A stretch of 64,000 nucleotides of DNA, from positions 1 through 64,000 of the IMG/VR virus record IMGVR_UViG_3300020576_005251; one strand, given 5' to 3'. Below the pieces are notes generated by a model. It searched no databases. It saw nothing but the letters and a program-made list of their open reading frames with translations, and was not told the origin of the DNA. Shown piece after piece: positions 775 to 63,886 of this stretch. The position numbers and the translations under genes were made by a program. The DNA is from a virus. Taxonomy: Duplodnaviria; Caudoviricetes. Every line of letters starts with the position of its first letter. The stretch's first letter is position 1.

Positions 775-823
775 CCCCCTGTTTTCGGACCCCTATACGG
801 CGTATTCGACCTACCCTTCTGGC

Positions 824-1192
824 ATGAACCCCATCATCGCCTTCCTCACCCAGAACTGGCAGTGGCTGTTCTGGCCCATCGTCAGCGCCACCCTGGCCGT
901 CCTCTCTCGCAAGAAGACGGCCCAGGAGTGGGAGACCTGGGCCCTGGAGAGCCCGGTCCTGGCCTTCCTGATCGAGATCGCCCGTGCGGCCGGTTTCGAC
1001 ATCGTCAAGATGATGTCCGCCTTCAAGCGGTACGCCGACCGCCGCGCCGGGGCCATCCCCAACGAGATCTGGGAGCGGCTCCCGGTGAGCAACGCCCTGA
1101 AGGCGCACCTCGCCGACCCCGCCAAGCGCCGCCAGCTGGAGGCGCTCGTGCAGGAGTTCAGCCAGACGCCCTCTACGCCTTCGACTCCCTGA
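824..1192 (+). CDS. Small membrane protein (holin-like candidate)
   Basis: Hydrophobic N-terminus (IIAFLTQNWQWLFWPIVSATLAVL) followed by RKK. TACCCT lies 6 nt before the ATG. Confidence 0.5.
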   Translation: MNPIIAFLTQNWQWLFWPIVSATLAVLSRKKTAQEWETWALESPVLAFLIEIARAAGFDIVKMMSAFKRYADRRAGAIPNEIWERLPVSNALKAHLADPAKRRQLEALVQEFSQTPSTPSTP

Positions 1193-2483
1193 CCACCCCC
1201 CGCTTCCAGAGCAGATCCAGGGCGGCTTCCATCAGCTTGTGGATGTTGTCCACGTGGCCGATGGTACCGTCATCGGACCCGTCCAGGTGCGCCGCCTCGT
1301 GGATGTACACCCCCAGCGCCTTCCCGAAGGATGCCAGCGTACTGCGCGCGAGGAACACCTGCCCATCGCGCATCAGCCCCTCCGTCGTGGCGCCCTTGAA
1401 GTCGACGACCGAAGGCAGCACGTCGATCTTGAGCGATTCCCCGACCTCCAGCAGGCCGCGAACGATCTCGCGCTCCCGCGCTTCGAGGTCTTCCACGGCG
1501 TAGGTCTTGGTGATCTTCCTCCGAGTCTCCTGGAGGATCGTTGTGATCGAGGGCAGCGGGCTGCGCACCAGGGCGCAGAGGCTGGTGGGCAGGCTCACCG
1601 GGACCATCCCGCTGTGCTCCAGCTGGACGCCCTCTCCGACAGAGCTCACGGGGTAGGCGTTCTCGCCGTGCTTCTCTCGGAACACGGCCAGGAGCTTGCC
1701 CGAGAGCCCCGGCGTGTACATGTGCTCCAGCCCCGAGAACTCCCCCGCGCCCCGCGCCATGGCGTTGTAGCACGCCTTCGCGTTGTCGGGGTCACGCGCC
1801 GCTTCCGCCCACATCTCGCCGATGCGCCGTGTGGCCTCGTCCTGCCGGTAGGACTTGCGATCCCGGCCAATGTCCAGGTCGATGAAGTCGTACCCGAACT
1901 TGCTGTCTCGGACCATGTCCACGAACACACCCCTGGAGAAGCGGCGCCCCGCGTACTCCTGGTCCAGGAGGATGGTACCCTTTGTGGTCTGGATCTTCTC
2001 CACGGGGGGCATGAGGCGCAGAAACAGCTGCTGAATCTGGTACCACGCGTCGTCGTCCAGTCCGGGGATCTCCACGGACACCATGCCACGAGACTTGATG
2101 CTTCGCGTAGTGATGACGAAGGAGGAGAGGTCGTTGGCGTCCTTCTCGAAGGATGGCGTCCAGGTCTCGTCGTCATTGACGACACGAACGGGGATCTGAA
2201 GCCGTGCGAAGATGAGGAGCGCCAGCTTGAGCCCCTCGCCGAACTGACCGATCAGCCCGCCGCCGCCGCCGCGCTTCGACGTACCGCCGAAGTAGAGCGC
2301 TTCAGGGGGCATCTTGACGCCCTGGTTCTCGACGTAGAGGGTGCCCTGTGCGAAGCGGATCACGCAGGGTGACTTGCGCTGAGCCTCGGCATCGAGTCCG
2401 TTTGCGATGATCTCGCGGATGCCGTCGAACAGCGTCCACCCATGGACGTACTCTGCCAATGCCATGTACCGATAGACGGCCAT
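1173..2483 (-). CDS. GHKL (HATPase_c) ATPase fused to a C-terminal HExxH metallopeptidase-like domain
   Basis: REIIANGLDA (N box), ENQG, GGTSKR...IGQFGEGLKLA (G boxes), and C-terminal IHEAAH...GH. Start placed at ATG 2483. Confidence 0.75.
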   Translation of the reverse strand: MAVYRYMALAEYVHGWTLFDGIREIIANGLDAEAQRKSPCVIRFAQGTLYVENQGVKMPPEALYFGGTSKRGGGGGLIGQFGEGLKLALLIFARLQIPVRVVNDDETWTPSFEKDANDLSSFVITTRSIKSRGMVSVEIPGLDDDAWYQIQQLFLRLMPPVEKIQTTKGTILLDQEYAGRRFSRGVFVDMVRDSKFGYDFIDLDIGRDRKSYRQDEATRRIGEMWAEAARDPDNAKACYNAMARGAGEFSGLEHMYTPGLSGKLLAVFREKHGENAYPVSSVGEGVQLEHSGMVPVSLPTSLCALVRSPLPSITTILQETRRKITKTYAVEDLEAREREIVRGLLEVGESLKIDVLPSVVDFKGATTEGLMRDGQVFLARSTLASFGKALGVYIHEAAHLDGSDDGTIGHVDNIHKLMEAALDLLWKRGVVRESKA

Positions 2484-2526
2484 AGTGCCTACTTTCAGAC
2501 GGGAGTTGTTGAGGATTGGGGATGAA

Positions 2527-2961: not shown

Positions 2962-3301
2962 GCGGAGGATGCTCCGGGGCGAAGGGGCTCACGCCGAGGT
3001 GGCCGTGGCCTCGATGAACCTTCCAGCCGTTCACCAGCTGAGCTTCCTCGCGTAGGAACTCAGACTCGAAGAACGCCCGGAAGGCTCCTGAGATACGTTC
3101 GTCGCACTCGACCGTCTCAGGGTGACGTAGGTAGAGAGTGGCTTGGTCTCCTTCGTGTTGGACGTAGCCCTCGACCGCGTGTCCGAGGGGGGTGTAGGGG
3201 GAGAGCGTGTGCAGCACCTCTCCCGACTTGCGCGCTCGCTCGACCGCTTCATTCAAAGCAGCCGCGCGGAAGAGGAGATAGAGGCGCTGGGCGTGTGTCA
3301 T
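2915..3301 (-). CDS. Hypothetical protein (MTHAQRLYLL...)
   Basis: C-terminal part of ORF 2915..3610; ATG at 3301 overlaps the stop of 3298..3645 (ATGA coupling). Confidence 0.5.
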   Translation of the reverse strand: MTHAQRLYLLFRAAALNEAVERARKSGEVLHTLSPYTPLGHAVEGYVQHEGDQATLYLRHPETVECDERISGAFRAFFESEFLREEAQLVNGWKVHRGHGHLGVSPFAPEHPPHDPRSSTDHPVRNPR

Positions 3302-3645
3302 CGGTTCTGCGAGTAGTACGCGAACGCAGCCTTGCGCGCCTTGGCGATCTGAGCAGGCGCCTCGGGCACGTCGGCGAGGTTGAAGGTGTTCAGCGCCATC
3401 AGCTCCTGCGCGTAAGCCACCTCCACGGGCGTGAGGCCCGACTCCAGACGCAGGAGGTTCAGGAACTTGATGAGGTCCTCCGTGATCTTCTTGGCTCGAC
3501 CCCAGGGGTCCTTGGGGTCGGGCACGTACGGCGTATCGAACCCCCACGGATCCTTCACGTCGCGCTCCGCGAGGCTCTCGTCTGGTGCGAGCGTCGCGAG
3601 TCCCGCCCACTGCTCCTGCCTCTTCAGGCGAGCTTCGTCGCTCAC
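3298..3645 (-). CDS. Hypothetical protein
   Basis: Part of a chain of 4-nt-overlapping minus-strand genes; protein-like composition. Confidence 0.6.
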   Translation of the reverse strand: MSDEARLKRQEQWAGLATLAPDESLAERDVKDPWGFDTPYVPDPKDPWGRAKKITEDLIKFLNLLRLESGLTPVEVAYAQELMALNTFNLADVPEAPAQIAKARKAAFAYYSQNR

Positions 3646-4333: not shown

Positions 4334-4752
4334 AGGATGATCCTTGTCCGGTCGACACCCTTGGAACCGTCACGGTCGTCACAGCGGATGTGTGCGTACT
4401 CCGCCTCCTCCTTGACCTTGACGTTGGGATGTCCCGCCACCGGGTCGTGATCGATCTCTTGTACTCGAAGGACTTCCCCGAGGAGGTCCCCTCTGCGGAA
4501 CGGCTCTCCACACTTCAGACACTGGTAGCTCGGTGCTGTCGGCATGACCAATCCTAGCCTTTCTACCTTGAGGCGTCCCGGGTTGAGCTGCTTGTGAACC
4601 CAGGGCAGCTTCGGGTTCCCGCAGTCTGTGTGGTAGGCCAGCGGAGCGTCCTGACCTTGTGGACGCCCGTTGCGCATGTGAGAGAAGCGGTGGGCCTGCC
4701 CCACCTTGTCTTCTTTCGCCAGCCGCTGTCCGCAGAAGGGGCAGTCCATCAC
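4330..4752 (-). CDS. Zn-ribbon-containing hypothetical protein
   Basis: CPFC...HTDC and CLKC...HIRC motifs. Confidence 0.6.
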   Translation of the reverse strand: MMDCPFCGQRLAKEDKVGQAHRFSHMRNGRPQGQDAPLAYHTDCGNPKLPWVHKQLNPGRLKVERLGLVMPTAPSYQCLKCGEPFRRGDLLGEVLRVQEIDHDPVAGHPNVKVKEEAEYAHIRCDDRDGSKGVDRTRIIL

Positions 4753-6734
4753 GCCCCCGTAGCCTGCGCCCCCAGGGCACGCAGGATGTTCAGGACCATG
4801 GCCTTGTCTTGCAGGTACGGGTGGGGGAGCGACCCCCTCACCCGTCCCGCGTATGCCTTGGCCTTGGCGGGCGCCGGGGGCTTGGAGTGGGCCCTCAGGT
4901 CGAGGAGCGCCACCACGCCACGGTCGTCCTCGGTGCGGATCAAGCGTCCGCCGCCCTGCTTGAGGTCCATCACGGCCTCCTGAAGATCGAACGCCTCCCA
5001 GGAGCGGATCTCAGCCGTCTTCTGCGCGATCCCGTTGGCCACCATCGCATTGATGTACACCTCCTTCCGAGCACCCAGGAGGATGTCGGCACGGTTCGGG
5101 AACGGGAGGCGTGGGATGATCACGAGGCGCAAGGTGTCGCCCGGAATGTCGACGCCCTCCCAGAAGGTCTTCAGCCCCATGAGGACGTTGTTCTTGGCGG
5201 ACTTGAACCAGTTGATCGTGTCTTCGAACGAGACGCCAGGGCGCTGATGCGTCAGCGTGTAGGGCAGCGGGTAGTACATCTTCCGGATGGCCTCGTAGAG
5301 CTCGCGCATGTCATCCGTGGAGGAGCAGAGCACGAACGCGCCGCCGTTCGATGCGACGAGAAGCTCGTGGATGCACGTCGCCATCTTCCGGTAGTAGTCC
5401 CCGCCGCGTTCCGCAGGGTCCGGGGAGTCCGCTGCGACGTAGAGCGCGGACTTGGTCTTGTAGTCGAAGGGCGACGGCAGGATCACCGAGTGCTTGATCT
5501 GCGAGGGCGCCAGACCATACTCGCGCGCCATGTAGTCCATGCGATCGAAGACGGACAGCGTGGCGCTGGTCACCACGACGCGACCGATGCCGAGGAGCGC
5601 CGGAGCGACGAGGGGGCCGATCTCGACCGGACATGTCACGATGTTCCACTCATCGCGCGCGCCCTTCTCGATGTACTTGACCCAATCCACCCGATCGCCC
5701 AACGGGTGCTGGTATTCGCCGAGCGTGACCTCGGCGAGCGTGCGCATCTGCGTGAGCATCTGCGAGGCGCTCCGCAGCTGCGCCTTGATGCGGGCGCTGG
5801 TTTCGTCGCCGCCCATGAAGCCCTCGTCGTCGTCGATCATGTCCGCGCGTTGCATGCCCGAGAGCGCCTTGCCCGCGAGGTCCCGCAGCTGGACGAAGTG
5901 CGAGGCGAGGGGGCCGCTCATCCCCAGGTGTTGGTTGCGCTTCGGAACCTCCGCGAAGATCGCGTCGTAGATCGCGAACAGACGCGTCCCAGGGTCGTAC
6001 TGCGTGTCCTTCAGCAGTCGAGCGAGGTGCTCCGGCTGGCGCGGCGTCAGGCGGAGGGAGTAGGCATCGCGGAAGAACTTCGGGGCTTGGTGGGCCTCGT
6101 CGATGATCAATACGTCGTACGGGCCGAGGATCTTGCCCCCGCCGATCGCGAGGTCCTGGGCGAGCAGGGCGTGGTTGACCACGAGCACCTGCGCGAAGGT
6201 GCCCTTGTTGCGCGACTTGAGGTAGCCACATCCTTCGGCGTACGGGCACGCGCTGCGCACACACTCGCTGACACGCGCGTGGTGCAGCCACTTGTAGTCG
6301 GGCAGGCCGCTCATGTCGGCGTCTTCGGACTGATCCAGCCACGCCTGGAAGATCTTCGCCTCCTCCGGGTTGACATCTTGAAAGGCGGTCGTGGATGCGA
6401 GGTCGGCCCAGCGGAGACGGCAGGCGTGGTTGCCCTTGCCCTTCATGCTCGCGTAGGGCCGCGCGTTGATGAGCGAGGCGACGTGAGGGAGGTCCGCGCC
6501 GATCAGCTGTTGCTGGAGGGCCTTCTTGGCGGTGGAGATCACCACACGCTTGTCCGACGCCATCGCAGGCACCGAGTAGGCGAAGCTCTTGCCGGTGCCC
6601 GTACCGGCCTCGATGAAGGCGATGCCGCCGTTCTGGATGATGTCATCGACGGTCTTCGCCATGGTGACTTGGGCGGGTCGCACAGAGCGAACGAGCCCCT
6701 TCGCGGGATCAGTGAACCAGTCTTCGATTGCCAT
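4749..6734 (-). CDS. dinG: DinG/YoaA-family SF2 helicase with Fe-S cysteines
   Basis: RPAQ Q-motif, EAGTGTGKS, DEAH, SATL, FWEGVDIPG, RLPF and QGGGRLIR; Cys pattern C...C-x4-C-x5-C. Confidence 0.9.
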   Translation of the reverse strand: MAIEDWFTDPAKGLVRSVRPAQVTMAKTVDDIIQNGGIAFIEAGTGTGKSFAYSVPAMASDKRVVISTAKKALQQQLIGADLPHVASLINARPYASMKGKGNHACRLRWADLASTTAFQDVNPEEAKIFQAWLDQSEDADMSGLPDYKWLHHARVSECVRSACPYAEGCGYLKSRNKGTFAQVLVVNHALLAQDLAIGGGKILGPYDVLIIDEAHQAPKFFRDAYSLRLTPRQPEHLARLLKDTQYDPGTRLFAIYDAIFAEVPKRNQHLGMSGPLASHFVQLRDLAGKALSGMQRADMIDDDEGFMGGDETSARIKAQLRSASQMLTQMRTLAEVTLGEYQHPLGDRVDWVKYIEKGARDEWNIVTCPVEIGPLVAPALLGIGRVVVTSATLSVFDRMDYMAREYGLAPSQIKHSVILPSPFDYKTKSALYVAADSPDPAERGGDYYRKMATCIHELLVASNGGAFVLCSSTDDMRELYEAIRKMYYPLPYTLTHQRPGVSFEDTINWFKSAKNNVLMGLKTFWEGVDIPGDTLRLVIIPRLPFPNRADILLGARKEVYINAMVANGIAQKTAEIRSWEAFDLQEAVMDLKQGGGRLIRTEDDRGVVALLDLRAHSKPPAPAKAKAYAGRVRGSLPHPYLQDKAMVLNILRALGAQATGA

Positions 6735-11369: not shown

Positions 11370-11557
11370 GTCTCGAAACTCCCGTACGCCGTATTCCGGC
11401 CTCCACGACGATCCTGCTCACCTCTCGGCACGAGGCGCTCGTCTCCGCGTATCTCGCCGACCGCACCCCCGCGAGCGATCTCCCTTCGGTGTACCGACTG
11501 GCGCGCGAGGTCGTGCGGCGCCAGGGGCACCTTGAGCTCTACCAGAGCACGAGCTGA
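11366..11557 (+). CDS. Small hypothetical protein
   Basis: GTGA overlap with the upstream stop, GGGAGG SD, and abuts the next gene. Confidence 0.5.
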   Translation: MSLETPVRRIPASTTILLTSRHEALVSAYLADRTPASDLPSVYRLAREVVRRQGHLELYQSTS

Positions 11558-11559
11558 GC

Positions 11560-31275: not shown

Positions 31276-31282
31276 GGGTCCT

Positions 31283-34106: not shown

Positions 34107-34113
34107 GGAACCC

Positions 34114-47464: not shown

Positions 47465-47528
47465 GTTGTCTCACTTGCTCGACTTGTTGATGTTACCCAC
47501 CCCAGAAGCTATATGGTATATCAAGATC

Positions 47529-49508: not shown

Positions 49509-49769
49509 GATCGCGGTCCTCTTGTTGATATCCGATGGGTTGCTGCTCGCGACGTAGAATCCGCCCTAGCGCGGCAGCTATGGGTTGAACTGGCACGACG
49601 GTGACGGGGATGCGATCCACACGTCCTCCTTCTGCCAGATGGCGGTAGCAGTGATAGAAGTCCTGGGCAATCGCTGCGTCTGACGCAGGGGCTGCGACCA
49701 AAACAAAGAAGAGGTGCCCCACGAGCTGCCGGTGCAGCTCGGCGTCGGCGAAGACGTACTCCCCACGAA

Positions 49770-49958
49770 TCAGCGCTCGAAAGGCGCTGTCCCGCAGTTC
49801 GGGCATCTCCGCAGACTGGACTCGGGGCTTGGGGGCGGCACGGGACTTTGGCATTGGGGGCACGAGGTAGGTTGTGCCACGACTCCAATACGGCGTAAAG
49901 TCTTCGGTGCGGGCTCTTCTACCAGATCTTCGTCTGTTTTTACGCCGTACTTATCCAC
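49770..49958 (-). CDS. Small Zn-ribbon protein
   Basis: CPQC...CPNCG. Confidence 0.55.
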   Translation of the reverse strand: MDKYGVKTDEDLVEEPAPKTLRRIGVVAQPTSCPQCQSPVPPPSPESSLRRCPNCGTAPFER

Positions 49959-50313
49959 GGGGCTTGATCCCCCAGGCTTCGATGCCCGACACCGGCTGCG
50001 GGGCGTCCGGGTCGAACGGGCGCGATGAGTGCGGCTGCGGACGCTGAGGGAGCGGGATCAGGTCGTCGGAGCTCCGTGGGTGGGCACGCTTGGGTTCGGG
50101 CAGTTCGGAGGGCGTCTTGACGACGATCGGCGTCTCGGTGATGCGAGGCACCTCGACGATGGGCGTTTCGCTGAGCGACACGCTGACCTCGACGATCGGG
50201 ATGGGGTCGTGGGCGATGCCCTCCGGCGCGATCTGCCCGGGGAACCGCTTGCGCAGATCCAGCCCGATCAGCTTCGCGATGTCTTCCCCTGAGTACTCGA
50301 TCTTCATCTTCAT
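49951..50313 (-). CDS. Hypothetical Pro-rich protein
   Basis: Coupled to the SNF2 gene stop (ATGA). Confidence 0.5.
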   Translation of the reverse strand: MKMKIEYSGEDIAKLIGLDLRKRFPGQIAPEGIAHDPIPIVEVSVSLSETPIVEVPRITETPIVVKTPSELPEPKRAHPRSSDDLIPLPQRPQPHSSRPFDPDAPQPVSGIEAWGIKPRG

Positions 50314-52286: not shown

Positions 52287-52303
52287 GTGCCTATCCTTCC
52301 CTG

Positions 52304-54440: not shown

Positions 54441-54610
54441 CCACAACTCGAAGCCGTCATTCTCCCGGTGCTCTAGCGCCCCACGCCTGGGGCGTCGCTC
54501 AGAGCAGTACGATCAGGAACTTGAACACAGAGACGATGGTCACTACGTACCTCTGCGGAGGGGAAACTGTCCGCATTGTCTTCTACCCGAATACGCCGTA
54601 AACTTCTGGG

Positions 54611-57600
54611 GTGTCAGAACCCACGCCTATCTTGACCGACGCCAGCGTGATCCGTCAGCGCATGCACGAGAAGTCGATCTCGGCGATCGCGTCGACCTTC
54701 CCGCTCACGCTCCGCAACGGGACGCTGGAGGTGCAAGACCTCAAGGTCGTCACGCGGCAGTTCAGCCCGATCGACCAGTACAACGCGCTGATGCGCGAAG
54801 GCACCCTTCAGGAAGCGGTGAAGGGCACCCTCGTCCTCAAGGACAAGGAGGGCAAGGTCGTCGACACGGCGAAGAACTTCACCCTCGTACACGTGCCCCA
54901 TCTGACCGAGCGTCACACGTTGATCATGGGCGGCAACGAGTATCAAGTCGCCAACCAGCTTCGGCGCAAGCCGGGCGTGTACACGGCGCGCGCCGACAAC
55001 GGCGAGCTGCGGGCGATCTTCAACCTGGGGCGCGGCAGCAACTTCAACCTGGGCTTCACACCCGACAAGGGCACCTTCCACGTCCAGCTGGGGACCTCCA
55101 ACATCCCGCTCTACCCCGTGCTCCGCGCGGCGGGCGTCAGCCACGAGACCATCGCCCACCACCTCGGCGACGCGGTGGCCAAGGCCAACCAGACCTACCA
55201 CGGCAAGGAGGAGGAACGCGCGACCGGGAAGCTCTACGCGAAGCTGGAGCACCCCGCGCTGTTCAACGCGAACCTCCCGCACGCGGAGAAGGTGGAGGCG
55301 ATCCGCAAGAAGTGGGACGTGACCACGCTCGACCCCCACGTGACGGAGGCGACTCTCGGTACGGCGTATTCAAAAGTCACCCCCGAGGCGCTGCTGACGG
55401 CGGCACGGAAGGTGCTCGATGTCCACGGCGGTCACAAGGCCACCGATGACACCGACGCGTTGACCTACAAGACCTTCCACTCGCTGGACGACTTTCTGCA
55501 CGAACGGATCAAGCTCACCGCGCGCGCCTGGGTGCCGAAGGCGAAGCTCGCCCTCGCGACCAAGGGCACGATTCACGAGGCGTTGCGCCCTGCGCCCTTC
55601 TCGGATGGCGTGCGAAAGTTCATCACGACCGGCTCGCTGGCGGCGGTGCCGACTGCGATCAACCCGCTCGAACTGATCGATCACGCGGTGAAGGTGACGA
55701 GCCTTGGAGAGGGTGGAATCCCCTCGGATCGAGCCATTCCGCTTGACGCGCGCATGATCCACAACACGCACTTCGGAGCACTGGATCCGATCCGTACGCC
55801 TGAGTGTTTTCCGCCTGACGTCGAAGTCTGCACTCAACGGGGGTGGGCGCGTTGGGACGATGTGAGTGACTCGGACGCGTTCCTGACGATGGCGGGGGAC
55901 CTCCGCGTATTCCAGCTCCCTGAGCGTATCGTGCGTGAGCCCTACGAAGGGCTCATGTGTCACATGACAGGTGAGCATATCGACTGCGTGGTCACACCGA
56001 ACCACCGTGTATACGGGCGTGCGACCGAGCTTGCAGATGACGCCTTCGTGCAAGCGTGGGAACTTCAGGGCGCGACCCAGTGGTACTTCCCTACGGAGGA
56101 CCCGAACTTCGACTCCGTGTATGAGAGCGCACTCAGCACCTCAGTACAGCCCTATCGCGGCATGGTCTACTGCGCGACCGTCCCTGGGGGGCTCCTCTAT
56201 GTCCGCCGAAACGGTTGTACGCCGTATTGGACCGGCAACTCCAGTCACTCCGGAGTGGACATTCGCGCCACCATCGCCGCCCACCGCGACGAGGCTGGCA
56301 ACCTCTACACCGTCGCCACGAACGTGAAGACGAAGCGTGAGGAGTTCCTGCGCGCCGGAGACCTGCGGAAGTACGTGGTGGCGTTCCCCGGCGAAGAGCT
56401 CAAGGGGACGGTCGACGCCTTCAAGAACGGGCGTGTCGAGCGCGTGCCTGCGAGCACGGTGACGCACCAAATCGCTCACACCTCGCACCTCTATTCCCCT
56501 GCGACCACACTCCTGCCGCTGATCCACGGCATGCAGGGCAACCGCGCGATCATGGCGTCGAAGATGGGCACCCAGGCGTTGCCGCTCATCGAGCGGGAAG
56601 CCCCCTTCGTGCAGTCGAAGAGCCACCTGCCGGGTGAGATCAGCTTCGAGGCGATGTACGGGCACATGATCGCGCCGAGGGCGCCGGTCAGTGGGAAGGT
56701 GGTGAAGATCGAGGATGGGTGGATTCACATTCGGCCGGAGGGGGTGAAGAAGGCGACACACGCGGATGTGCGACACATCTTCGTCACGGGTCATTCGGGC
56801 TCCGGGAAGTCGACCTACGCCAAGAGTCTGTCGTCTGAAACGGGACTACCCGTTCACCGGCTCGACGACGCCCCCGGGCTGTTGGCCGCGCGCAAGTTGG
56901 GGGACACACCAACCGCAGAACGCCTGTCGCGCGAGGCGGTCGACCGTAGTTTGACGCTGTCGGTACCGCACATCATCGAAGGCACGTCCGCGTTGTTGAC
57001 GCCGGATCGTATGGCAGGGCACCGCGTTGTCTTGATGGACGCCCCGCGCGAGCACATTCTCAACGCGAGACTCCAGCGCGAAGTGGCGCAGGCGGCATCA
57101 CGCGGGGTTCCCGAGGATGTGGGGCGGCGCCAAGCACACGGAGCCGGTCTGTACGACTACTACGCACCACACGTTGATGCCGTGCGGCGTCTGTCGAACG
57201 TCGAAGTTCGAGCGCCGGGGTATGTGCCTACCGCTAAAGAGGCGGCTGAGTTCGTGGCGTATGTCGAAAAGACCGCCGAAGACCGCCCCACCGTCAAGGT
57301 TCGCTCTTTCGGCCCGTTCACGTTCCACGTCGAGATCCCCAAGGGCGCCAAGCCCTTCGGCCACCCGTTCCCCTGCGACTACGGCTACCTCCCGGGGTAC
57401 GTCGGTCCCGACGGCGACTCCCTCGACTTCTGGGTGGGGTCGGACAAAGACGGCGCGTTCGTTTCCGTCGACACCGAGGAGCAGAACGCGAAGGGTGTGT
57501 GGGTCAAGCGGGACACGAAGTACGTCGTCGGGGTGCCAAGCAATGAGGTGCATCTCGTCCTCACGCAGATCGAGCGCAAGCCCAAGACCCGGTGCGTCAA

Positions 57601-60600
57601 CCGACGCGACTACGCGTCGTGGGACGCGCTGACCAAGAGCATCGCGCACTTCAAGGACGAGGACGATCAGGTCGAGAAGACCGCCGCGACAAAGGACGAC
57701 GGACTCGTCCGCGTGCCGTACAGCCAGAACTTCCCGTTCCCTTCGAAGACCAGTCTGAACCACACGCTGAGCGTCAAGCCCGGCGACACTGTGGTAGCTG
57801 GGCAGCGCATGGGCGATTCCAACTACACGAAGGACGGCGTCCTCGCGCTCGGGCGCAACCTCCGCGTGGCGTACGTCCCCCACTACGGCCTGAACTCGAA
57901 CGACGCCGTGGTGATCAGCGAGGCGTGCGCCAAGAAGCTCACGAGCGAGCACGTGTACCGCGAGGTGTTCTCCATCCCGGTCGGCATGGAGTTCAGCAAG
58001 GAGCGGCACCAGTTCTACTACGGGACGAAGTACAGCCCTGCGCAATACGGCGTACTGGACACGCATGGCGTGGTCAAGAAGGGGGTGCGGGTCAACCCGA
58101 AGGACCTCCTGGTCTGCGGACTCGTGAAGACCCAGGTTGTCGGCACCGATGCCATCCTGGGGCGCATCTCCAAGGCGCTCGCCCGCCCCTATCAGGAGGT
58201 CGCGCTCACCTGGAACCACGGCACTCCGGGTGAGGTGATCGACGTGGTCCGTACGGGATCCCAGATCGCGGTCCTGGTGAAGACCATCGAGCAGATGCAG
58301 GTGGGGGACAAGCTCGCGGGTCGCCACGGCAACAAGGGCGTCGTGGCGAAGATCCTCCCTGATCACGAGATGCTGAAGGACGAAGCGGGCAACACGATCG
58401 ACCTCCTCCTGACGAGCGCAGGCGTGATCTCGCGCATCAACCCCTCACAGGTGTTGGAGACCGCGCTGGGCAAGGTCGTTGAGAAGACGGGCAAGCCGAT
58501 CGTCTTCGACAACAACATGCCGAGGAACCTGGAAGCCTGGACCGCTGAGCAGCTCAAGAAGCACAACATCAAGGACAAGGAGCACCTCTACGACCCGGTG
58601 TTGAAGCGTCACATCAAGGGCCCGGACGGCGCGGGCGTGTTCGTCGGGCGCCAGTTCATCTACAAGCTGTTCAAGAGCACCGACACGAACTTCTCGGGGC
58701 ACGGTGTTGGGCCGTACGATCTCAATGAACAGCCCCTGAAGACCGGGGGCGAAGAGTCCGCCAAGGGTATCGGGAAGATGGAGTTCGACGCGTTGATCGC
58801 GCACAACGCGCGCAACTTCCTGCGCGAGGCGTCCGCGATCAAGGGGCAGAAGAACGACGAGTTCTGGCGGGCGATCCAGCTGGGCCTCCCGCTCCCTGCC
58901 GCGAAGTCCCCGTTCGCCTTCAAGAAGTTCGTGGGGATGCTGGAGGGCGCGGGGCTGAAGGTGGATCAGCGTGGCTCCAAGTTCCAGCTGCTGCCGCTCA
59001 CCGACAAGGACATCCTGGCGCGATCGACCGGCGAGATCAAGAAGCCGGAGACGCTCATCGCGAAGAACCTCAAGCCCGAGGCTGGGGGTCTGTTCGACCC
59101 GAGGCTCACCGGGGGGCTTGGTGGGACGTTGTATTCGCACATCGACCTCCACGAGCCCATCCCTCACCCGGTGTTCAAGGAGCCGGTGCGGCGCCTGCTC
59201 GGGCTCACGGAGAAGGGCTTCGACGAGAAGCTCCAGACGCACGGTGGCGCGTGGTTTCACAAGGAACTGAAGGCGCTCGACACCGACCAGAAGCTCAAGG
59301 ATCTGCACGCGCGCCTGAAGACCGCGAAGGGCGCAGACCTCAACGACACCGTCAAGCAGATCAAGTACCTCGACGCACTGAACGCTCACGGCTACAAGCC
59401 GCACGACGCGTACGTCGTATCGAAGGTGCCTGTGGTGCCTCCGGTGTTTCGACCGATCATCGCTCAGCCGAACAACCCTGGGGAGCTGATGATCGCAGAC
59501 GCCAACAAGCTGTACATGCACGTGATGGATTCGAACCACACGCTGAAGAACACAGCGCTGGAGTCCGACATCGGCAAGCACCGCCGTCAGATGTTCAACG
59601 CAGTGGCGGCGCTCTACGGCACAGAGGACGTGGAGAACGACGAGCTGCGCGGACAGAGCGTGAAGGGCTTCCTGTCGAACATCGCAGGTGTCGGCACGCC
59701 CAAGGGCGGGTTCTTTCAGCGCAAGGTGATCCGCAAGACCCAGGACGTGTCGGGCCGTGGCACGGCGGTGCCCGATCCGACCTTGGGCATGGACAACGTC
59801 GGCATCCCCGAGCAGATGCTCTGGCAGATGTACGACAAGCTGATCATCGCGCGCATGGTGCGTCAGGGCCACACGGCGCTCGAAGCCAAGGAGGCCGTAC
59901 TCAAGAAGACGCCCTCGGCGAAGGCGGCGTTCATGCAGGAGATCGGCGAGCGGCCGGTGATGATCAATCGGGCGCCGACGCTCCATCGGTGGTCGATCGT
60001 GTCGGCGTACGCCGTACCCGTGCAAGGGAAGACGATTCGGGTGAACCCGTTTATCGAGAAGGGGTTGAATCTTGACTACGACGGGGATAATCAAGATTCA
60101 ACTGTAATCTTGATTCTGGCAAAGCCGCCTTTTGGCGGTTGTCATAATCGTGGTTCATACCTTGACTTCGTTACTGACAGTGCTACAGTGGTACTCCCTG
60201 GAGACCTTCGTCTCCCTCTCATGGAGGATCACATGGCCGCACGCTTCCGTACCGAAGTCCCTGCCCTCATCAACCAAGAGCTCGTCCTCTGCGATCTCGC
60301 GAACTTCCCACACGGGGAGAAGGTCAGTCAGAATGGGCACATCTCCTTCTACGCCGTGCCGGAGAATGTGTCGGTTCTCGCTCTCGACGAGGCTACCGGG
60401 CGCATCTGTGTGCAGCACCCCACGCTCTGGTCCCACCATGCTCAACGGGAGCGCGTCATCATCACGCTCGGCTCCGAACGACAGATCTTCTCCGACGACG
60501 ATCCGCGCGCTGTCTACGGCCTGGATTCGAATCTGAACTACATCAGGCGGCGCCCCTCGGAGTCCGTGGGCGTCTTCGTACCCGTCAGCTACGGCGCTAT

Positions 60601-61897
60601 CGGCGATGGGGGCGGCGCCACACTCGACACCCTCCCGGCAACCGACAAGGCGCCAGCGTTCCTCCTGACTGAAGATGCCGGGCACCTGATCGGAATGTTG
60701 ATCGGCAACGGATGGGTGGAGCCCTATCGTCTGCGTCTCGCCGGGATGAACAAGGGGATCCAGGCGCAGTTCCGCGCCGCCCTGCCCTCACTGTTCCCTG
60801 GGGTACCGATCAAGTTCGTAGTCTATGGGCACGACGCGAGCGGTGGATTCGGGGACTCAGAGGTCACGTGCGCCACCAGTGAACCCGGCACGCTGTTGTC
60901 TTCTCGGTTCCAGGGTATGTTCGGTCATGGTGCTGAGAACAAGCACCTCCCTACGTGGTTCCTGCGTACGACGTACGCATTCCGTCGGGGGCTCCTGGCT
61001 GGCCTCATCGACACAGACGGGTCTGTGTCAGTCAGCCACGGCAAGAAGAAGCCGCAGTGGATGGTGAACTATTCCAGCCGAAGTGGGCGCCTCGCGCGAG
61101 AGATCGTACTGCTGGCTCAATCGCTGGGTTTGCGCGCGAAAGTCACTCCGGCTAAGACGCCGCTGGGTGAGCCTCACTACGTCGTCAACTTCTCCACAGT
61201 CGAGCTCGGCCGCTTCGGACCGCTCCCCCTGGTTCACACTGAGAAGTCAGTGAAGTTCCGGGAGTTTCAAGCAGACCCTCCGGAAGCCAACGCTTCGTAC
61301 AACGCAACGAACCTCCTGCCGGTACCTGCTACGCTCGCGAAGCAGCTCAGCCGCCTCTTCAAGAGCGGTGGTTCGGATTATGCGAAGTGGTACCAGTCTA
61401 TCAAGAAGGGTTACGTGGCGCGCGCATTCGCGGAGGAGACTCTGACACTACATCCCACTCTGCGCGAGACGGATGACGGACTGATGCGGCGCTGGATCGA
61501 GCTCGTTGACAACAAGACGGTACGCTGGGACCAAGTCACGGAGTTTCGGGAGACCGGCATCGTCGAAGACGGCTACGATCTCACGGTCCCCGGCTATGAG
61601 ACGTTCATGAACGTCGAAGGCGTCATTCTCTCCAACACCCTCCAAGTCCACGCCCCCGTCACCCACGACGCCATCGCCGACGCGAAGAAGATGACCCTGT
61701 CCAACATGCTGCTCGCGGACAACACGCGGAACAAGATCCTCGCGTTCCCGCAGCACGAAGCGATCATCGGCTTCACCCATGGCTCGAAGCTAGCCCCCTC
61801 GAACAAGCCCGTGCGCCACTTCAAGTCGATGGAGGAGGCCATCGCGGCTTACAAACGCGGAGAGCTCGCTGCGAACGACCCGATCGAGGTATCCTAG
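54611..61897 (+). CDS. rpoBC: Multisubunit RNA polymerase beta + N-terminal beta' fusion, with two inteins and inserted kinase and pyrophosphatase domains
   Basis: Beta motifs: QLRRKPGVY, DPIRTPE, NRAIMASKMGTQA, LALGRN, GDKLAGRHGNKG, GKMEFDAL. Beta' motifs: GEIKKPET, GLFD, PVVPPVFRP, NRAPTLHR and catalytic NLDYDGD. Confidence 0.95.
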   Translation: MSEPTPILTDASVIRQRMHEKSISAIASTFPLTLRNGTLEVQDLKVVTRQFSPIDQYNALMREGTLQEAVKGTLVLKDKEGKVVDTAKNFTLVHVPHLTERHTLIMGGNEYQVANQLRRKPGVYTARADNGELRAIFNLGRGSNFNLGFTPDKGTFHVQLGTSNIPLYPVLRAAGVSHETIAHHLGDAVAKANQTYHGKEEERATGKLYAKLEHPALFNANLPHAEKVEAIRKKWDVTTLDPHVTEATLGTAYSKVTPEALLTAARKVLDVHGGHKATDDTDALTYKTFHSLDDFLHERIKLTARAWVPKAKLALATKGTIHEALRPAPFSDGVRKFITTGSLAAVPTAINPLELIDHAVKVTSLGEGGIPSDRAIPLDARMIHNTHFGALDPIRTPECFPPDVEVCTQRGWARWDDVSDSDAFLTMAGDLRVFQLPERIVREPYEGLMCHMTGEHIDCVVTPNHRVYGRATELADDAFVQAWELQGATQWYFPTEDPNFDSVYESALSTSVQPYRGMVYCATVPGGLLYVRRNGCTPYWTGNSSHSGVDIRATIAAHRDEAGNLYTVATNVKTKREEFLRAGDLRKYVVAFPGEELKGTVDAFKNGRVERVPASTVTHQIAHTSHLYSPATTLLPLIHGMQGNRAIMASKMGTQALPLIEREAPFVQSKSHLPGEISFEAMYGHMIAPRAPVSGKVVKIEDGWIHIRPEGVKKATHADVRHIFVTGHSGSGKSTYAKSLSSETGLPVHRLDDAPGLLAARKLGDTPTAERLSREAVDRSLTLSVPHIIEGTSALLTPDRMAGHRVVLMDAPREHILNARLQREVAQAASRGVPEDVGRRQAHGAGLYDYYAPHVDAVRRLSNVEVRAPGYVPTAKEAAEFVAYVEKTAEDRPTVKVRSFGPFTFHVEIPKGAKPFGHPFPCDYGYLPGYVGPDGDSLDFWVGSDKDGAFVSVDTEEQNAKGVWVKRDTKYVVGVPSNEVHLVLTQIERKPKTRCVNRRDYASWDALTKSIAHFKDEDDQVEKTAATKDDGLVRVPYSQNFPFPSKTSLNHTLSVKPGDTVVAGQRMGDSNYTKDGVLALGRNLRVAYVPHYGLNSNDAVVISEACAKKLTSEHVYREVFSIPVGMEFSKERHQFYYGTKYSPAQYGVLDTHGVVKKGVRVNPKDLLVCGLVKTQVVGTDAILGRISKALARPYQEVALTWNHGTPGEVIDVVRTGSQIAVLVKTIEQMQVGDKLAGRHGNKGVVAKILPDHEMLKDEAGNTIDLLLTSAGVISRINPSQVLETALGKVVEKTGKPIVFDNNMPRNLEAWTAEQLKKHNIKDKEHLYDPVLKRHIKGPDGAGVFVGRQFIYKLFKSTDTNFSGHGVGPYDLNEQPLKTGGEESAKGIGKMEFDALIAHNARNFLREASAIKGQKNDEFWRAIQLGLPLPAAKSPFAFKKFVGMLEGAGLKVDQRGSKFQLLPLTDKDILARSTGEIKKPETLIAKNLKPEAGGLFDPRLTGGLGGTLYSHIDLHEPIPHPVFKEPVRRLLGLTEKGFDEKLQTHGGAWFHKELKALDTDQKLKDLHARLKTAKGADLNDTVKQIKYLDALNAHGYKPHDAYVVSKVPVVPPVFRPIIAQPNNPGELMIADANKLYMHVMDSNHTLKNTALESDIGKHRRQMFNAVAALYGTEDVENDELRGQSVKGFLSNIAGVGTPKGGFFQRKVIRKTQDVSGRGTAVPDPTLGMDNVGIPEQMLWQMYDKLIIARMVRQGHTALEAKEAVLKKTPSAKAAFMQEIGERPVMINRAPTLHRWSIVSAYAVPVQGKTIRVNPFIEKGLNLDYDGDNQDSTVILILAKPPFGGCHNRGSYLDFVTDSATVVLPGDLRLPLMEDHMAARFRTEVPALINQELVLCDLANFPHGEKVSQNGHISFYAVPENVSVLALDEATGRICVQHPTLWSHHAQRERVIITLGSERQIFSDDDPRAVYGLDSNLNYIRRRPSESVGVFVPVSYGAIGDGGGATLDTLPATDKAPAFLLTEDAGHLIGMLIGNGWVEPYRLRLAGMNKGIQAQFRAALPSLFPGVPIKFVVYGHDASGGFGDSEVTCATSEPGTLLSSRFQGMFGHGAENKHLPTWFLRTTYAFRRGLLAGLIDTDGSVSVSHGKKKPQWMVNYSSRSGRLAREIVLLAQSLGLRAKVTPAKTPLGEPHYVVNFSTVELGRFGPLPLVHTEKSVKFREFQADPPEANASYNATNLLPVPATLAKQLSRLFKSGGSDYAKWYQSIKKGYVARAFAEETLTLHPTLRETDDGLMRRWIELVDNKTVRWDQVTEFRETGIVEDGYDLTVPGYETFMNVEGVILSNTLQVHAPVTHDAIADAKKMTLSNMLLADNTRNKILAFPQHEAIIGFTHGSKLAPSNKPVRHFKSMEEAIAAYKRGELAANDPIEVS
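55805..56239 (+). mobile_element. Mini-intein (145 aa, no endonuclease) in RNAP beta after TPE
   Basis: Starts CFPPDVEV; block B VTPNH; block F VYCATV; ends WTGN followed by Ser. Confidence 0.9.
56770..57225 (+). other. P-loop nucleotide-kinase-like domain inserted in RNAP beta
   Basis: HIFVTGHSGSGKST (Walker A at 56789-56815), IIEG, and VLMDAP...NARLQR lid-like segment. Confidence 0.75.
57290..57660 (+). other. Inorganic pyrophosphatase-like domain inserted in RNAP beta
   Basis: VEIPKG, PCDYGYLPG, DGDSLD and D-x-K match family I PPase signatures. Confidence 0.75.
60089..61636 (+). mobile_element. Non-canonical intein (516 aa) with LAGLIDADG homing endonuclease, directly after the catalytic DYDGD
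   Basis: HLIGMLIGNG and LLAGLIDTDG; block F GYDLTV; ends ILSN followed by Thr. Removing it restores NLDYDGD-TLQVHAP (compare NADFDGDQMAVHVP). Confidence 0.85.
60162..60235 (+). promoter_or_regulatory. Internal sigma70-like promoter, RBS and in-frame ATG inside intein 2
   Basis: TTGACT 60162-67, 16-nt spacer ending TGC, TACAGT 60184-89, GGAGGA 60223-28 and ATG 60233. Confidence 0.55.
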
Positions 61898-61900
61898 AGC

Positions 61901-62455
61901 ATGTTCGAGCAAGAGCTCATCGACGAGATCAACCGACACCTCAAGGCAGCGGAGGATCTCCCCCCGGAGATGGCTCCGCAGCCCGAGATGGCCCCGCAGC
62001 CTGAGTTGCCTCCGCAGCCGCCCGCGCTGCCGCAGGCGATCATCGGGCTGCTCCAGATTCAATACGCCGTACTGCTGGCGTACATGACCTACGGGGACCA
62101 GCTCCAGTGCATCGAGCGCGATGGGCTCTACGAACACTTCAAGACGCACGCGAAAGACCTCAAGGCGTGGATCTACGAGCTCCATCGCACCCTCGCCTCG
62201 ATGGGCACAGAGTCCTATCCCCAGGGCGTGTCTGTGCCCACGGCCCCGCTGAAGGCCGCGCGCCCCGCCATCGAGGCCCTGCTGGGTCTGGAGACACAGG
62301 TCCTCGACGGCTGGGCCAACTGCGCCGCTGTCCTCTCGACCGAACCTCCGGCGACGCAGGGAGAGCTCGCGGCGCTCACGACCTTCTTCGAAGACGGCGG
62401 GCGTAACACCCTGGCGCATGTCCAGGATCTGCGCCGCTACCTTGGGGGTGCGTGA
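61901..62455 (+). CDS. Ferritin-like four-helix-bundle protein (degenerate)
   Basis: QYAVLLAY...FKTHAKDLKAWIYELHRTLASMG...LGLETQ...AHVQDL follows the bacterioferritin/Dps helix pattern; N-terminal PEMAPQ tandem repeat. Confidence 0.5.
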   Translation: MFEQELIDEINRHLKAAEDLPPEMAPQPEMAPQPELPPQPPALPQAIIGLLQIQYAVLLAYMTYGDQLQCIERDGLYEHFKTHAKDLKAWIYELHRTLASMGTESYPQGVSVPTAPLKAARPAIEALLGLETQVLDGWANCAAVLSTEPPATQGELAALTTFFEDGGRNTLAHVQDLRRYLGGA

Positions 62456-62733
62456 TGAATATGGAGGTCAAGCTCCAGCGCCCCATGCGCTCCGGGGGCG
62501 GTCGCTTCTCCAGCGTGGACCACGCCTTCCGCCAGGGCGCGAACGACACCCTGAAGAAGCTCGCGCTGCTCGAACACGCTCCGGATCCGGGGGCATTCCT
62601 CGCGCAGCTCTTTCGCACCTCAAACTTCGGCTACGGCAAGGATCTGGCGACCCCCAAGACCACCTACACGCCGGTCACGCCGCAAGCTGAGCCCCTGATC
62701 CGCTTCTCCCCCTCCACCATCCAGACACGGTGA
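62452..62733 (+). CDS. Hypothetical protein
   Basis: Coupled ORF with a GGGGGT SD. Confidence 0.55.
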   Translation: MMNMEVKLQRPMRSGGGRFSSVDHAFRQGANDTLKKLALLEHAPDPGAFLAQLFRTSNFGYGKDLATPKTTYTPVTPQAEPLIRFSPSTIQTR

Positions 62734-62737
62734 TCCT

Positions 62738-63886
62738 GTGCCCTACGAGAGCCCCTACCAGAGCATGGTCGAAAACGAGGTGCTGTTCCAACAGCAGCCC
62801 TGGCTGAAGCGCATCCCGCACCAGATCCGACACGCAGTGACCCCCGTGAGTGATGCGCTCACCGGCACAGGCGCGGGCCTGATCGCGGGGACGGCGCTGG
62901 GCTCACCCAGGGCAGGAGCCGTCGTGGGCGGTGTGCTGGGCGGTCTCCATGGCGTGCTCGCACACAGCCCCACTCCTGCACAGGAGTGGGCGTACAACAA
63001 CCCCGAGCTCGTGCATGTGCTGAAGGCGCGGGCGGCGTACGACGCGGGGGGTGGGTTTGAGATGGGGAAAGCTGCGAGTTGGGAGAAGCTCGCAGTCAGT
63101 CCTGAGTGGGTCGGCGCGCGGCTGGAGTCGTTGAAGGACAGTACGGATCCTGACGTACGTGATCGCCTGTCAAAGCTCTACGATCTTACGGATGCTGCGG
63201 CCCGTCGCACGTGGTCGAAGGCAGATCAGGTTATGGAACAGAGCCCGCATGCCGATGCGACGCTCGGCCAGATCAAGCGGCTGGCTGCGCAGGGAGAGCC
63301 AGCGGCTGTTCAATACACACAAAGAGTCCAAGAAGCCAACAGGCTCCGTACGATCAACGCGGGGCCTATTGTCGGCGCGATCAATCGGATCGAGAGCAAC
63401 AGCCATCGCAAGTGGACTCAGCTAAAGATGGAGCAAGAGCTGCGGGAGTCGGAGCGTCGATTCGCGGAACAACTCGCGTCTGAATCTGCGGCGCGGTTGG
63501 CTGCGGCAACCAAGGCGCGGGATACCCACATCAAGACCCCCTTGGCCGTCGCGGTAGACAACGCTGAGGCGGCGCGCACCCACGCCTCCGAAGTTAGTCA
63601 GGCGTTCATTCGCATGGGCGAAAAGATGGATGCGCGTGCAGCTGAAACGCCGAAGGCTCCTGCGCCTGCCACGCACGCGCCTGCGCCTGCGCCTGTGCCT
63701 GCGCCTGCCACGCACGCGCCTGCCGCCGCCCCCACGTCCAACCTCCGTCGCAACCTCACCTTGGGTGCTGCGGTCGCTCTCCCGACCCTGGCCTATACGG
63801 CGTATCGGCACTTCGCCGACAAGCCTGACGCAGAGAAGGCTCGCGAAGCGGGCAAGACTGCTATGCTCCGCACCCTGGGGTTCTGA
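62738..63886 (+). CDS. Hypothetical protein with glycine-zipper-like segment, PA-rich linker and C-terminal hydrophobic helix
   Basis: GTGAGLIAG...GGVLGG, (PA)n and LGAAVALPTLAY. Confidence 0.6.
   Translation: MPYESPYQSMVENEVLFQQQPWLKRIPHQIRHAVTPVSDALTGTGAGLIAGTALGSPRAGAVVGGVLGGLHGVLAHSPTPAQEWAYNNPELVHVLKARAAYDAGGGFEMGKAASWEKLAVSPEWVGARLESLKDSTDPDVRDRLSKLYDLTDAAARRTWSKADQVMEQSPHADATLGQIKRLAAQGEPAAVQYTQRVQEANRLRTINAGPIVGAINRIESNSHRKWTQLKMEQELRESERRFAEQLASESAARLAAATKARDTHIKTPLAVAVDNAEAARTHASEVSQAFIRMGEKMDARAAETPKAPAPATHAPAPAPVPAPATHAPAAAPTSNLRRNLTLGAAVALPTLAYTAYRHFADKPDAEKAREAGKTAMLRTLGF
63659..63723 (+). repeat. 26-bp direct repeat encoding a PAPATHAP linker
   Basis: cctgcgcctgccacgcacgcgcctgc at 63659-63684 and 63698-63723. 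Confidence 0.8.

Follow-up and report, generated by a model that had tools for sequence, protein, structure and literature searches.

A strongly selected, evenly spaced palindrome across a phage genome is a candidate loading lattice for an orphan ParB/Noc/KorB-type protein

The phage record IMGVR_UViG_3300020576_005251 (Caudoviricetes; 172,885 bp, 64.4% GC, complete by CheckV estimate; G000 below) carries along its whole length a short palindrome, TACGSCGTA, and our analysis finds this motif to be real, strongly selected, phage-autonomous and regularly spaced. It had been pointed out in an earlier note on the first 64 kb of the record (the window, 64,000 nucleotides in full), which took the palindrome for the binding site of a dimeric protein that acts on the phage chromosome as a whole. 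Here, TACGSCGTA denotes the S-centred 9-mer, copies with A or T at the center are termed W-centred, and RTACGSCGTAY is the extended form. We favor the reading, with a probability of roughly 0.55, that the motif forms a lattice of docking or loading sites, spread over the whole genome, for the phage's own orphan ParB/Noc/KorB-type protein, the candidate reader, which is encoded at 48324–49508 on the minus strand.

All 35 S-centred copies previously listed for the window proved real, and one more at 32025 raises the count to 36, compared with 0.14 ± 0.35 expected from dinucleotide-preserving shuffles; the four W-centred copies listed alongside them (6111, 15688, 59411, and 60967) are real as well. 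Across the whole of G000 we counted 92 S-centred and 9 W-centred copies, giving 101 sites, with a single copy of the reversed word that served as a control, and Markov models of orders 0–4 predict only 0.4–2.7 copies against the 92 observed. R..Y flanks accompany 81 copies genome-wide, and the 31 copies so flanked that had been reported for the window were upheld (31/36 with 32025 counted; the exceptions are 13937, 32025, 49889, 49941, and 54592). The word is sharply bounded, in that each one-mismatch variant of the 9-mer occurs 0–9 times vs. 92 exact copies, and its flanking symmetry reaches about 15 bp (S-M-R-TACGSCGTA-Y-K-S). Within G000, the choice of G or C at the center showed no bias by gene strand or genome position and no orientation bias, and the choice between A..C and G..T flanks showed no association with gene strand.

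In a crude set of 184 genes called from GC3, which takes in 83% of G000, we found 78 of the 101 sites (77%) inside called genes, in all three frames and in genes of both strands. Synonymous shuffling within genes, which preserves both protein and codon usage, leaves about 25 copies, about 22 of them in DNA that was not shuffled; since the coding copies are destroyed by this procedure, amino-acid or codon usage does not explain the motif, just as the earlier note had maintained. Taken with the dinucleotide shuffles and the Markov models, this rules out chance, base composition or codon usage as its source.

The sites are also distributed more evenly than random placement would produce. The coefficient of variation (CV) of gaps in G000 is 0.58, whereas 20,000 random placements averaged 0.98 and never fell below 0.70, at a mean density of approximately one site per 2 kb. 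The largest gap in G000 measures 5,166 bp where 9,444 bp is expected, and gaps of 150–550 bp number 1 vs. 21 expected under an exponential distribution. Within the window, where a ceiling of about 3.5 kb had been claimed with W-centred copies included, the largest such gap is indeed 3,483 bp. A few close pairs, 21–52 bp apart, occur in intergenic DNA of G000. More broadly, close or overlapping pairs 7 or 21–29 bp apart are mostly intergenic, with several at strand switches (105003/105010 and 112950/112957 in the relative G004; 139590/139614, 154418/154439, and 158670/158698 in G000), and such pairs may be stronger sites, or regulatory ones. The longest motif-free stretch of G000 (132,880–137,894) falls in the same region as eight open reading frames (ORFs) matching DUF6197, at about 133–137.5 kb of G000.

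To follow the motif through evolution, we searched IMG/VR with TerL, which returned four relatives at 64–93% identity and then 12 further ones at 42–52%. Five of these genomes including G000 make up clade A (GC 63–69%), and G009–G012 together with G014 make up a sister clade (GC 49–63%). TACGSCGTA is the single most frequent 9-mer in all five clade-A genomes, at one copy per 1.6–2.7 kb and with a spacing CV of 0.49–0.64. Individual positions change over time: where amino-acid identity is about 50%, only 12/51, 9/41, and 2/18 sites (11–24%) are orthologous, compared with 18/20 at 86% identity, and most G000 sites are common only to the closest relative. Where sites do align, their arms are retained well above background, being identical at 22/24 sites in G001 (vs. 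27% background, P = 5e-11), 16/57 in G004 (vs. 4.2%, P = 1e-9), and 13/44 in G003 (vs. 4.6%, P = 6e-8). Existing sites outlast neutral sequence and are under purifying selection. Sites found only in a relative lie a median of 260 bp from the nearest G000 site, compared with 476 bp at random (P = 0.03), with 328 bp in a second comparison (P = 0.1), which hints at local replacement. What is conserved is thus density and spacing, as selection for coverage would give.

More distant relatives carry related forms of the motif. G006 and G007 carry TTCAC-N3-GTGAA (39 copies in 131 kb, CV 0.54, center often GSC), and the G006 form, TT(T)CAC-N3-GTG(A)AA, consists of parS half-sites (TGTTNCACGTGAAACA) with a 3-bp spacer. 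G016, at 46% GC, carries TTTAC-N3-GTAAA in 6 copies vs. 0.07 expected, and the sister clade carries an asymmetric 11-mer, (W)ACGSCGTAAAG, once per 2.5–3.4 kb and with no gene-strand bias. Because related forms recur in relatives ranging from 46 to 69% GC, the core [T/C]AC-GSC-GT[A/G] changes along with the phage phylogeny, in genomes of widely differing GC content. A fully palindromic sister-clade form, TTTACGSCGTAAA, and with it a near-identity to the whole KorB operator, was rejected as an artefact of symmetrised logos, as oriented logos are asymmetric. The 51-kb fragment G015 contains neither a repeated palindrome nor a canonical parS. By TerL, the nearest relative in culture is Salmonella phage Arash (OQ632216.1; 30% identity). 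It shows neither a match to the ParB profile nor a palindrome lattice, in line with a lattice that depends on the ParB-like protein; the words over-represented in its genome are asymmetric and resemble promoters (GGTATAAGTAA in 13–16 copies, AAACGTTGTAAC in about 10). Another word-level observation concerns G009 (L063), in which a gene at about 82.7–84.3 kb with a long run of GGCTAC-type repeats, encoding a Gly/Tyr-rich protein, dominates the k-mer statistics and is unrelated to the motif.

The sister-clade 11-mer raises a different possibility, namely that the motif is a guide or protection signal in the manner of Chi or KOPS, read by a translocase or helicase-nuclease as a self mark for the phage's SNF2, UvrD or PD-(D/E)XK enzymes, the palindrome working in both directions. 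The cumulative orientation of the 11-mer switches within about 1.5 kb of the operon containing the ParB-like gene in G011, G010, and G009, an exploratory result, and when four genomes are pooled, the AAAG arm faces away from that locus in 77/105 copies (P = 2e-6, with the reference point chosen after looking); taken genome by genome, permutation P values are 0.05–0.43. Extremes of GC skew, tried as support for an origin at the switch, did not agree with it. Chi, KOPS and uptake sequences are likewise over-represented, evenly spread and independent of gene strand, and the phage has genes for two SNF2 helicases, a UvrD-like helicase and a PD-(D/E)XK nuclease, with one SNF2 gene adjoining the ParB operon in all relatives. 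The sister-clade polarity keeps a translocase guide in play and suggests a second specificity factor. The window's own form, however, shows no polarity and is a genuine dyad whose flanks are symmetric, for which a dimer on double-stranded DNA is the better fit, and the lack of enrichment in the candidate host means that the motif is not that host's Chi. We consider a guide signal unlikely.

We next considered the host, for which the only hint is binning-based: a GTDB metagenome-assembled genome (MAG) labelled uncultured Rhodoferax sp. (G017) holds a 16.7-kb contig with 93% TerL identity (C99; L086 = CAZMXB010000099.1). That contig has 9 motif copies, and another contig, C228, which may be phage-derived too, has 3. 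Including these, the 6.3-Mb MAG contains 34 copies vs. 59 of the reversed control, and 60 further genomes of its family contain 0–25 copies each, always at or below the control; motif density in the phage is roughly 150 times higher. Equal abundance in the host, which the earlier note said would refute its reading, was not seen. The motif is therefore no signature of the candidate host lineage, with the host link itself resting on binning, and we rejected a host signature for this family.

These counts bear on the proposal that the motif is a host-imposed or mutational signature, such as HIP1 or biased very-short-patch repair, passively inherited by the phage. HIP1-type palindromes likewise occur in coding DNA in all frames, and one-mismatch variants of the phage motif are mildly enriched (up to 9 copies). 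A mutational process would nevertheless give neither under-dispersed spacing nor purifying selection on sites, phages at 49% GC and at 63–69% GC have the same core, and the enzymes such a process would call for were absent from our searches, which comprised Pfam, NCBIfam and PHROGs scans of called ORFs together with six-frame searches for selected families. Six-frame searches gave no match at E ≤ 1 to PF01555 or PF00145 methyltransferases and none to Tet_JBP (the TET/JBP enzyme), ORF scans revealed no methyltransferase family, Pfam scans of called ORFs revealed no HNH nuclease or restriction enzyme, and family searches found no MutS/L/H or Vsr domain. A target of a phage methyltransferase of these families or of a TET/JBP enzyme was rejected on the same grounds. 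With the motif rare in the Rhodoferax MAG and its family, we regard an inherited signature as largely refuted and very improbable.

Among the proteins of the phage, the best candidate for a reader is the ParB-like protein, which the earlier note had already named. Its gene encodes 394 amino acids with an N-terminal ParB fold bearing GxxRxxA (GRCRTRA) and ENxxR boxes, a helix-turn-helix (HTH) domain (PF17762, E = 8.6e-7, above cut-off), and a C-terminal helical hairpin, preceded by a long, disordered, lysine- and glutamate-rich N-terminus. A profile of 16 orthologues matches Noc (3e-42), Spo0J/ParB (~1e-39) and KorB (2e-15) in the PDB. An AlphaFold2 model (pLDDT about 90 over residues 37–286) returned Noc, ParB-CTPgammaS and KorB in Foldseek, and its DNA-binding domain aligns to the structures of Noc on its binding site NBS (6y93, TM 0.80), ParB on parS (6s6h), and KorB on its operator (1r71). 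Across 12–16 aligned orthologues, residues G135, R138, E170, N171, and R174 of the two boxes are invariant. Pfam scans of called ORFs found no ParA, CbiA or AAA_31, and lacking a ParA partner the protein is an orphan, as are Noc and VirB. No homologue was found in cultured phage records by tblastn, and a word-index search at the 5.8-billion scale returned five proteins only.

The surroundings of this gene are strongly conserved. It is the last gene of a mini-operon on the minus strand whose first gene is a 36-amino-acid zinc-ribbon ORF (CxxC...CxxC; 49770–49880), with a small coding stretch in between (49509–49769) that shows codon-like conservation in an alignment of 11 relatives. Tail-to-tail with the ParB-like gene lies the second of the phage's sigma-70-like factor genes (47283–48323, plus strand), an arrangement kept in all relatives, and the order p407, sigma-like orf346, zinc-ribbon ORF, small ORF and ParB-like gene, SNF2 is the same in 11/11 relatives that cover the locus. 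A motif copy sits just 5′ of the first ORF of the operon, about 372–384 bp upstream of the ParB-like start codon, in 10/11 genomes; in G011 the distance is 213 bp, a shortfall that corresponds to 57 extra N-terminal codons in its ORF call. In G000 this operon site, at 49889, is the most positionally conserved of all 101 (9/10 alignable genomes, with 7/12 for the runner-up), and it retains the form TACGSCGTAAAG and a CGTAAAG arm in both clades. The motif itself, as an exact, symmetric, odd-length dyad with an S center, has an architecture that fits the ParB family, and its parS-like and operator-like features are resemblances rather than tests. The idea of a dimeric binder fares well, if indirectly, on an exact, selected and phage-owned dyad, while the HIP1 analogy attached to it does not.

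Several observations weigh against the ParB-like protein as the reader. The G000 protein is diverged, scoring 24.8 bits on TIGR00180 against a cut-off of 58.45 bits that orthologues from G011 (61.3), G006 (59.0), and G015 (111.1) pass; on the Noc equivalog model (cut-off 315 bits) it scores 32.7, and no orthologue comes near. It has a Cys (GRCRTRA) at the first arginine of the canonical GERRxRA patch, and given this substitution and the overall divergence, binding of cytidine triphosphate (CTP) is uncertain. The C-terminal part is a predicted helical hairpin (residues 311–364, pLDDT 76–90) unlike the canonical ParB dimerisation domain, with no match to PF23552. Recognition-helix residues do differ between motif classes, but these differences follow phylogeny and yield no independent covariation signal, so we discarded them as support. 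In G015, whose ParB-like gene is the most canonical of those compared, the 51-kb fragment shows no array or parS. The homologous motif of the sister clade is asymmetric and polar around the ParB locus, and we know of no ParB-type site that is polar or asymmetric in that way; a second factor may be at work there, or a translocase. Finally, about 60% of ORFs have no family assignment, and another reader could hide among them.

The last point leads to the alternative in which the reader is a different, unrecognised phage protein—a dimeric repressor, a nucleoid protein, or a nicking, modifying, priming or repair enzyme—and the site ahead of the ParB-like gene is simply one of many. Examples would be an Okazaki-priming or strand-discrimination signal with one site per 1–2 kb, the scale of Okazaki fragments and mismatch-repair tracts. 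A short exact dyad with an S center and R/Y flanks also resembles the word of a type II enzyme, a protein with a putative primase domain is encoded nearby, and both the unassigned ORFs and the G015 gene without an array fit this alternative. It is weakened by the lack of methyltransferase, TET/JBP, HNH, restriction, MutS/L/H or Vsr domains in the searches above, and by the fact that known primases read 3-nt words rather than 9–15-bp dyads. It also leaves unexplained why the ParB-operon site alone is conserved across both clades, and why the architecture is parS-like and operator-like. We view an unrecognised reader as doubtful, while giving it more weight than the guide signal.

Under the lattice reading for the ParB-like protein, we infer the following sequence of events by analogy with ParB–parS, Noc–NBS, and KorB with its operator OB. 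RTACGSCGTAY would be the recognition site of a phage-encoded dimeric DNA-binding protein, whose dimers would use their HTH domains to contact the dyad; nucleotide-dependent closure would then turn them into clamps able to slide or spread for about 1 kb. With one site per ~2 kb, the phage chromosome would stay loaded over its full length, and no other DNA would. Selection would act on coverage, such that a second nearby site adds nothing and is lost, which would produce both even spacing and slow positional turnover, and the site upstream of the ParB-like operon would be an operator or primary site. Candidate roles include organising the chromosome so that it can be replicated or packaged, controlling transcription across the genome together with the neighboring phage sigma factor and RNA polymerase (RNAP), and shielding phage DNA.

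A bolder version, which we offer as a long shot, is that ParB-type clamps loaded every ~2 kb on phage DNA only give the sigma-like factor and the fused beta-beta′ RNAP a mobile platform, with loading in the sister clade directional, away from the ParB locus. This would resemble phage T4, where the gp45 sliding clamp activates late transcription, and if true it would represent a new principle by which a virus recognises its own DNA and controls its genes genome-wide. The RNAP observation covers 54611–61897 (plus strand) of the window and 63890–65689 of G000, and a single 2,428-amino-acid ORF fuses RNAP beta (Rpb2 domains) with beta′ (Rpb1 domains 1–2) and also holds a LAGLIDADG homing-endonuclease/intein insert and an AAA_18 (kinase-like) insert; a match to Rpb1 domain 5 lies in one later ORF, among 133 not individually located. 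Such a fused, intein-bearing multisubunit RNAP is unusual for a phage. Both sigma-70-like factors (17482–18177 and 47283–48323, plus strand) are conserved across the whole phage group.

The individual sites of the window are given here without strand. The first, ATACGGCGTAT at 796–804, lies in divergent intergenic DNA between genes 7–744 (−) and 824–1192 (+), and is followed by ATACGCCGTAC at 2661–2669 in the coding sequence (CDS) 2527–2961 (−), GTACGGCGTAT at 3527–3535 in CDS 3298–3645 (−), and the W-centred ATACGTCGTAC at 6111–6119 in a Rad3/DEAD-type helicase gene (4749–6734, −). CDS 7794–11369 (+) contains ATACGCCGTAC at 8204–8212, whose position is orthologous in 5/8 alignable relatives. 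Further on come GTACGCCGTAT at 11385–11393 in CDS 11366–11557 (+), GTACGGCGTAC at 13558–13566 in CDS 12759–13805 (+), and two copies in CDS 13814–17485 (+), namely TTACGGCGTAT at 13937–13945, with flanks other than R..Y, and the W-centred GTACGACGTAT at 15688–15696. The first sigma-70-like gene (17482–18177, +) carries GTACGGCGTAC at 17739–17747, kept in 5/9 relatives, and the same sequence recurs at 19451–19459 in CDS 19246–19731 (+). Three copies share CDS 21790–25308 (+): GTACGCCGTAC at 22440–22448, GTACGCCGTAT at 23311–23319, and ATACGCCGTAC at 23958–23966; the next, ATACGGCGTAC at 25369–25377, is in CDS 25305–25793 (+).

The class II ribonucleotide reductase gene (28510–31452, −) contains GTACGCCGTAT at 28852–28860, and the divergent intergenic region between this gene and 31577–31798 (+) contains GTACGGCGTAT at 31472–31480, kept in 6/13 relatives. 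The newly added copy, TTACGGCGTAT at 32025–32033, is in CDS 31841–32764 (+), while CDS 33138–34106 (+) has both GTACGGCGTAT at 33194–33202 and GTACGCCGTAC at 33957–33965, and CDS 34051–35115 (+) has ATACGCCGTAC at 34756–34764. Next come GTACGGCGTAC at 37760–37768 in a DnaQ-like exonuclease gene (37441–38142, −) and GTACGGCGTAT at both 40704–40712 and 41514–41522 in the family A DNA polymerase gene (38165–41641, −), the former being the second most conserved site (7/12 relatives). ATACGCCGTAC at 44485–44493 is in CDS 41650–45060 (−), for a putative primase-containing protein, and again at 46769–46777 in CDS 46241–47464 (−). The operon site, ATACGGCGTAAAG at 49889–49897, precedes the zinc-ribbon start by 8 nt and the ParB-like start by about 381 bp, and 52 bp from it is TTACGCCGTAC at 49941–49949, which completes the only tight pair of the window and is shared only with the closest relative, G001. 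The SNF2-family helicase gene (50310–52319, −) holds ATACGCCGTAC at 51488–51496 and ATACGCCGTAT at 52104–52112, and CDS 52268–54001 (+) holds GTACGGCGTAC at 53809–53817.

ATACGCCGTAA at 54592–54600 ends 10 nt before the start of the RNAP gene at 54611, in its ribosome-binding region. The earlier note had placed this copy and the one at 796 at promoters, with 54592 overlapping a −10 box; a sigma-70 consensus scan gave no match at either site, and we dropped the promoter role. Inside the fused RNAP gene (54611–61897, +) lie GTACGGCGTAT at 55360–55368, GTACGCCGTAT at 56218–56226, ATACGGCGTAC at 58046–58054 (kept in four clade-A relatives), the W-centred GTACGTCGTAT at 59411–59419, GTACGCCGTAC at 60008–60016, and, in the intein region, the W-centred GTACGACGTAC at 60967–60975. 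The last two copies are ATACGCCGTAC at 62063–62071 in CDS 61901–62455 (+) and ATACGGCGTAT at 63796–63804 in ORF 62738–63886 (+), which is absent from the crude gene set.

Elsewhere in the genome, we observed a nucleotide-metabolism set comprising dCMP deaminase, dNMP kinase, ThyX, thymidine kinase, and class II ribonucleotide reductase (G000 147514–148167, 155827–156540, and 162255–163100, plus a thymidine kinase ORF). This set is compatible with altered pyrimidine pools, and no base-modification enzyme was recognised alongside it.

Short words under selection across an entire genome are rare, and the known cases (Chi, KOPS, uptake sequences, and the Noc and KorB sites) have each exposed a DNA-handling machine. 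Here, a virus bears the coding cost of about one exact 9–11-bp dyad per 2 kb, holding the spacing while positions drift. If the lattice reading is true, ParB-type clamps would operate in lytic phages, beyond plasmid or prophage partition; from the even spacing one could estimate, within the genome itself, how far the factor's action reaches, and the variant motifs of the relatives would form a natural series on the evolution of ParB-family specificity.

The HIP1 palindrome (GCGATCGC) is likewise hugely over-represented in coding DNA in all frames, and had been named as an analogy together with the Noc binding site. HIP1 is, however, a property of cyanobacterial host chromosomes tied to cognate methyltransferases, whereas here the candidate host family has few copies of the motif and no PF01555/PF00145 methyltransferase was found in the phage, so that the HIP1 analogy is unsupported; the Noc analogy is apt, and KorB–OB is closer still. 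Chi and KOPS differ in being asymmetric, skewed words where the window motif is a dyad, although its sister-clade homologue is skewed (77/105). In the ParB-dependent phage T-dioxygenase pathway, a 5mYOX/TET-JBP dioxygenase stands beside an HTH-less ParB, with NTG-type specificity (PMC13229309); we rejected this system for G000, given no Tet_JBP match in six frames and a ParB-like protein that does have an HTH.

The claim that no such phage signal had been described stands only in part. In the searchable literature, we found no paper naming TACGSCGTA as a motif or describing such an evenly spaced lattice in this form, but a dispersed dyad repeat has been published for Cluster O mycobacteriophages such as Corndog, and the claim needs qualifying to that extent. 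This 17-bp repeat, TGTTCGG-N3-CCGAACA, is the closest published phage case: dozens of invariant dyads throughout a non-temperate phage genome, for which the authors predicted a dimeric binder (PMC4351075, PMC6439249), and which are missing from the host (PMC6439249). In Corndog, 14/34 repeats lie between ORFs and 10 more near gene 5′ ends (PMC4351075), and the phage encodes a ParB-domain protein, gp90, which the authors did not link to the repeat (PMC4351075, PMC6439249). Our recount reproduced the 34 sites, which are clustered in the right arm and not regular (CV 1.06, P = 0.77), and found in gp90 a ParB N-domain only, with no detectable HTH. The two cases thus share dispersed invariant dyads (92 + 9 here, 34 in Corndog) and a ParB-domain protein, and differ in sequence, in regularity (CV 0.58 vs. 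1.06), and in location (77% in genes here vs. 24/34 intergenic or 5′-proximal).

Within the ParB family, canonical ParB–parS shares with the phage the N-domain boxes, the HTH, a site adjoining the parB gene and, in G006, the parS half-sites. The phage differs in having no ParA and no single centromere or origin-proximal cluster, with half-sites 3 bp apart and about 100 sites genome-wide. Noc is a better parallel, as an orphan ParB paralogue without ParA whose short palindrome is scattered over the whole chromosome, and in both sequence and fold it is the best match of the phage protein. Its roughly 70 sites in 4.2 Mb are absent from the terminus region and not regularly spaced, and Noc also has a membrane-targeting N-terminal helix; the phage protein has a disordered K/E-rich N-terminus instead, and falls far below the Noc cut-off (32.7 vs. 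315 bits).

The KorB–OB system of plasmid RK2, which has 12 OB sites in about 60 kb, likewise involves a ParB-family HTH protein acting away from a single centromere, at many odd-length, S-centred dyads spread over a replicon (operator TTTAGC(G/C)GCTAAA). The sister-clade arm (S-CG-TAAA) and the KorB operator arm (S-GC-TAAA) differ only in the order of two bases. KorB forms a CTP-dependent sliding clamp that reaches targets 1.5 kb away, and RK2 OB sites lie upstream of target promoters at distances from 4 bp to more than 1 kb (PMC11790492). Some OB sites are far from promoters, and the reach of the clamp is of the same scale as the phage spacing. KorB also has small partner proteins, and the phage operon has two small conserved ORFs. 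The systems differ in that the phage, lytic-looking rather than a plasmid, carries about 100 evenly spaced sites in 173 kb, 77% of them in genes where OB sites are not, has no ParA/IncC partner, and matches KorB (2e-15) more weakly than Noc or ParB. Of the systems compared, KorB–OB on RK2 is the closest in working principle, and Noc is the closest in sequence and fold.

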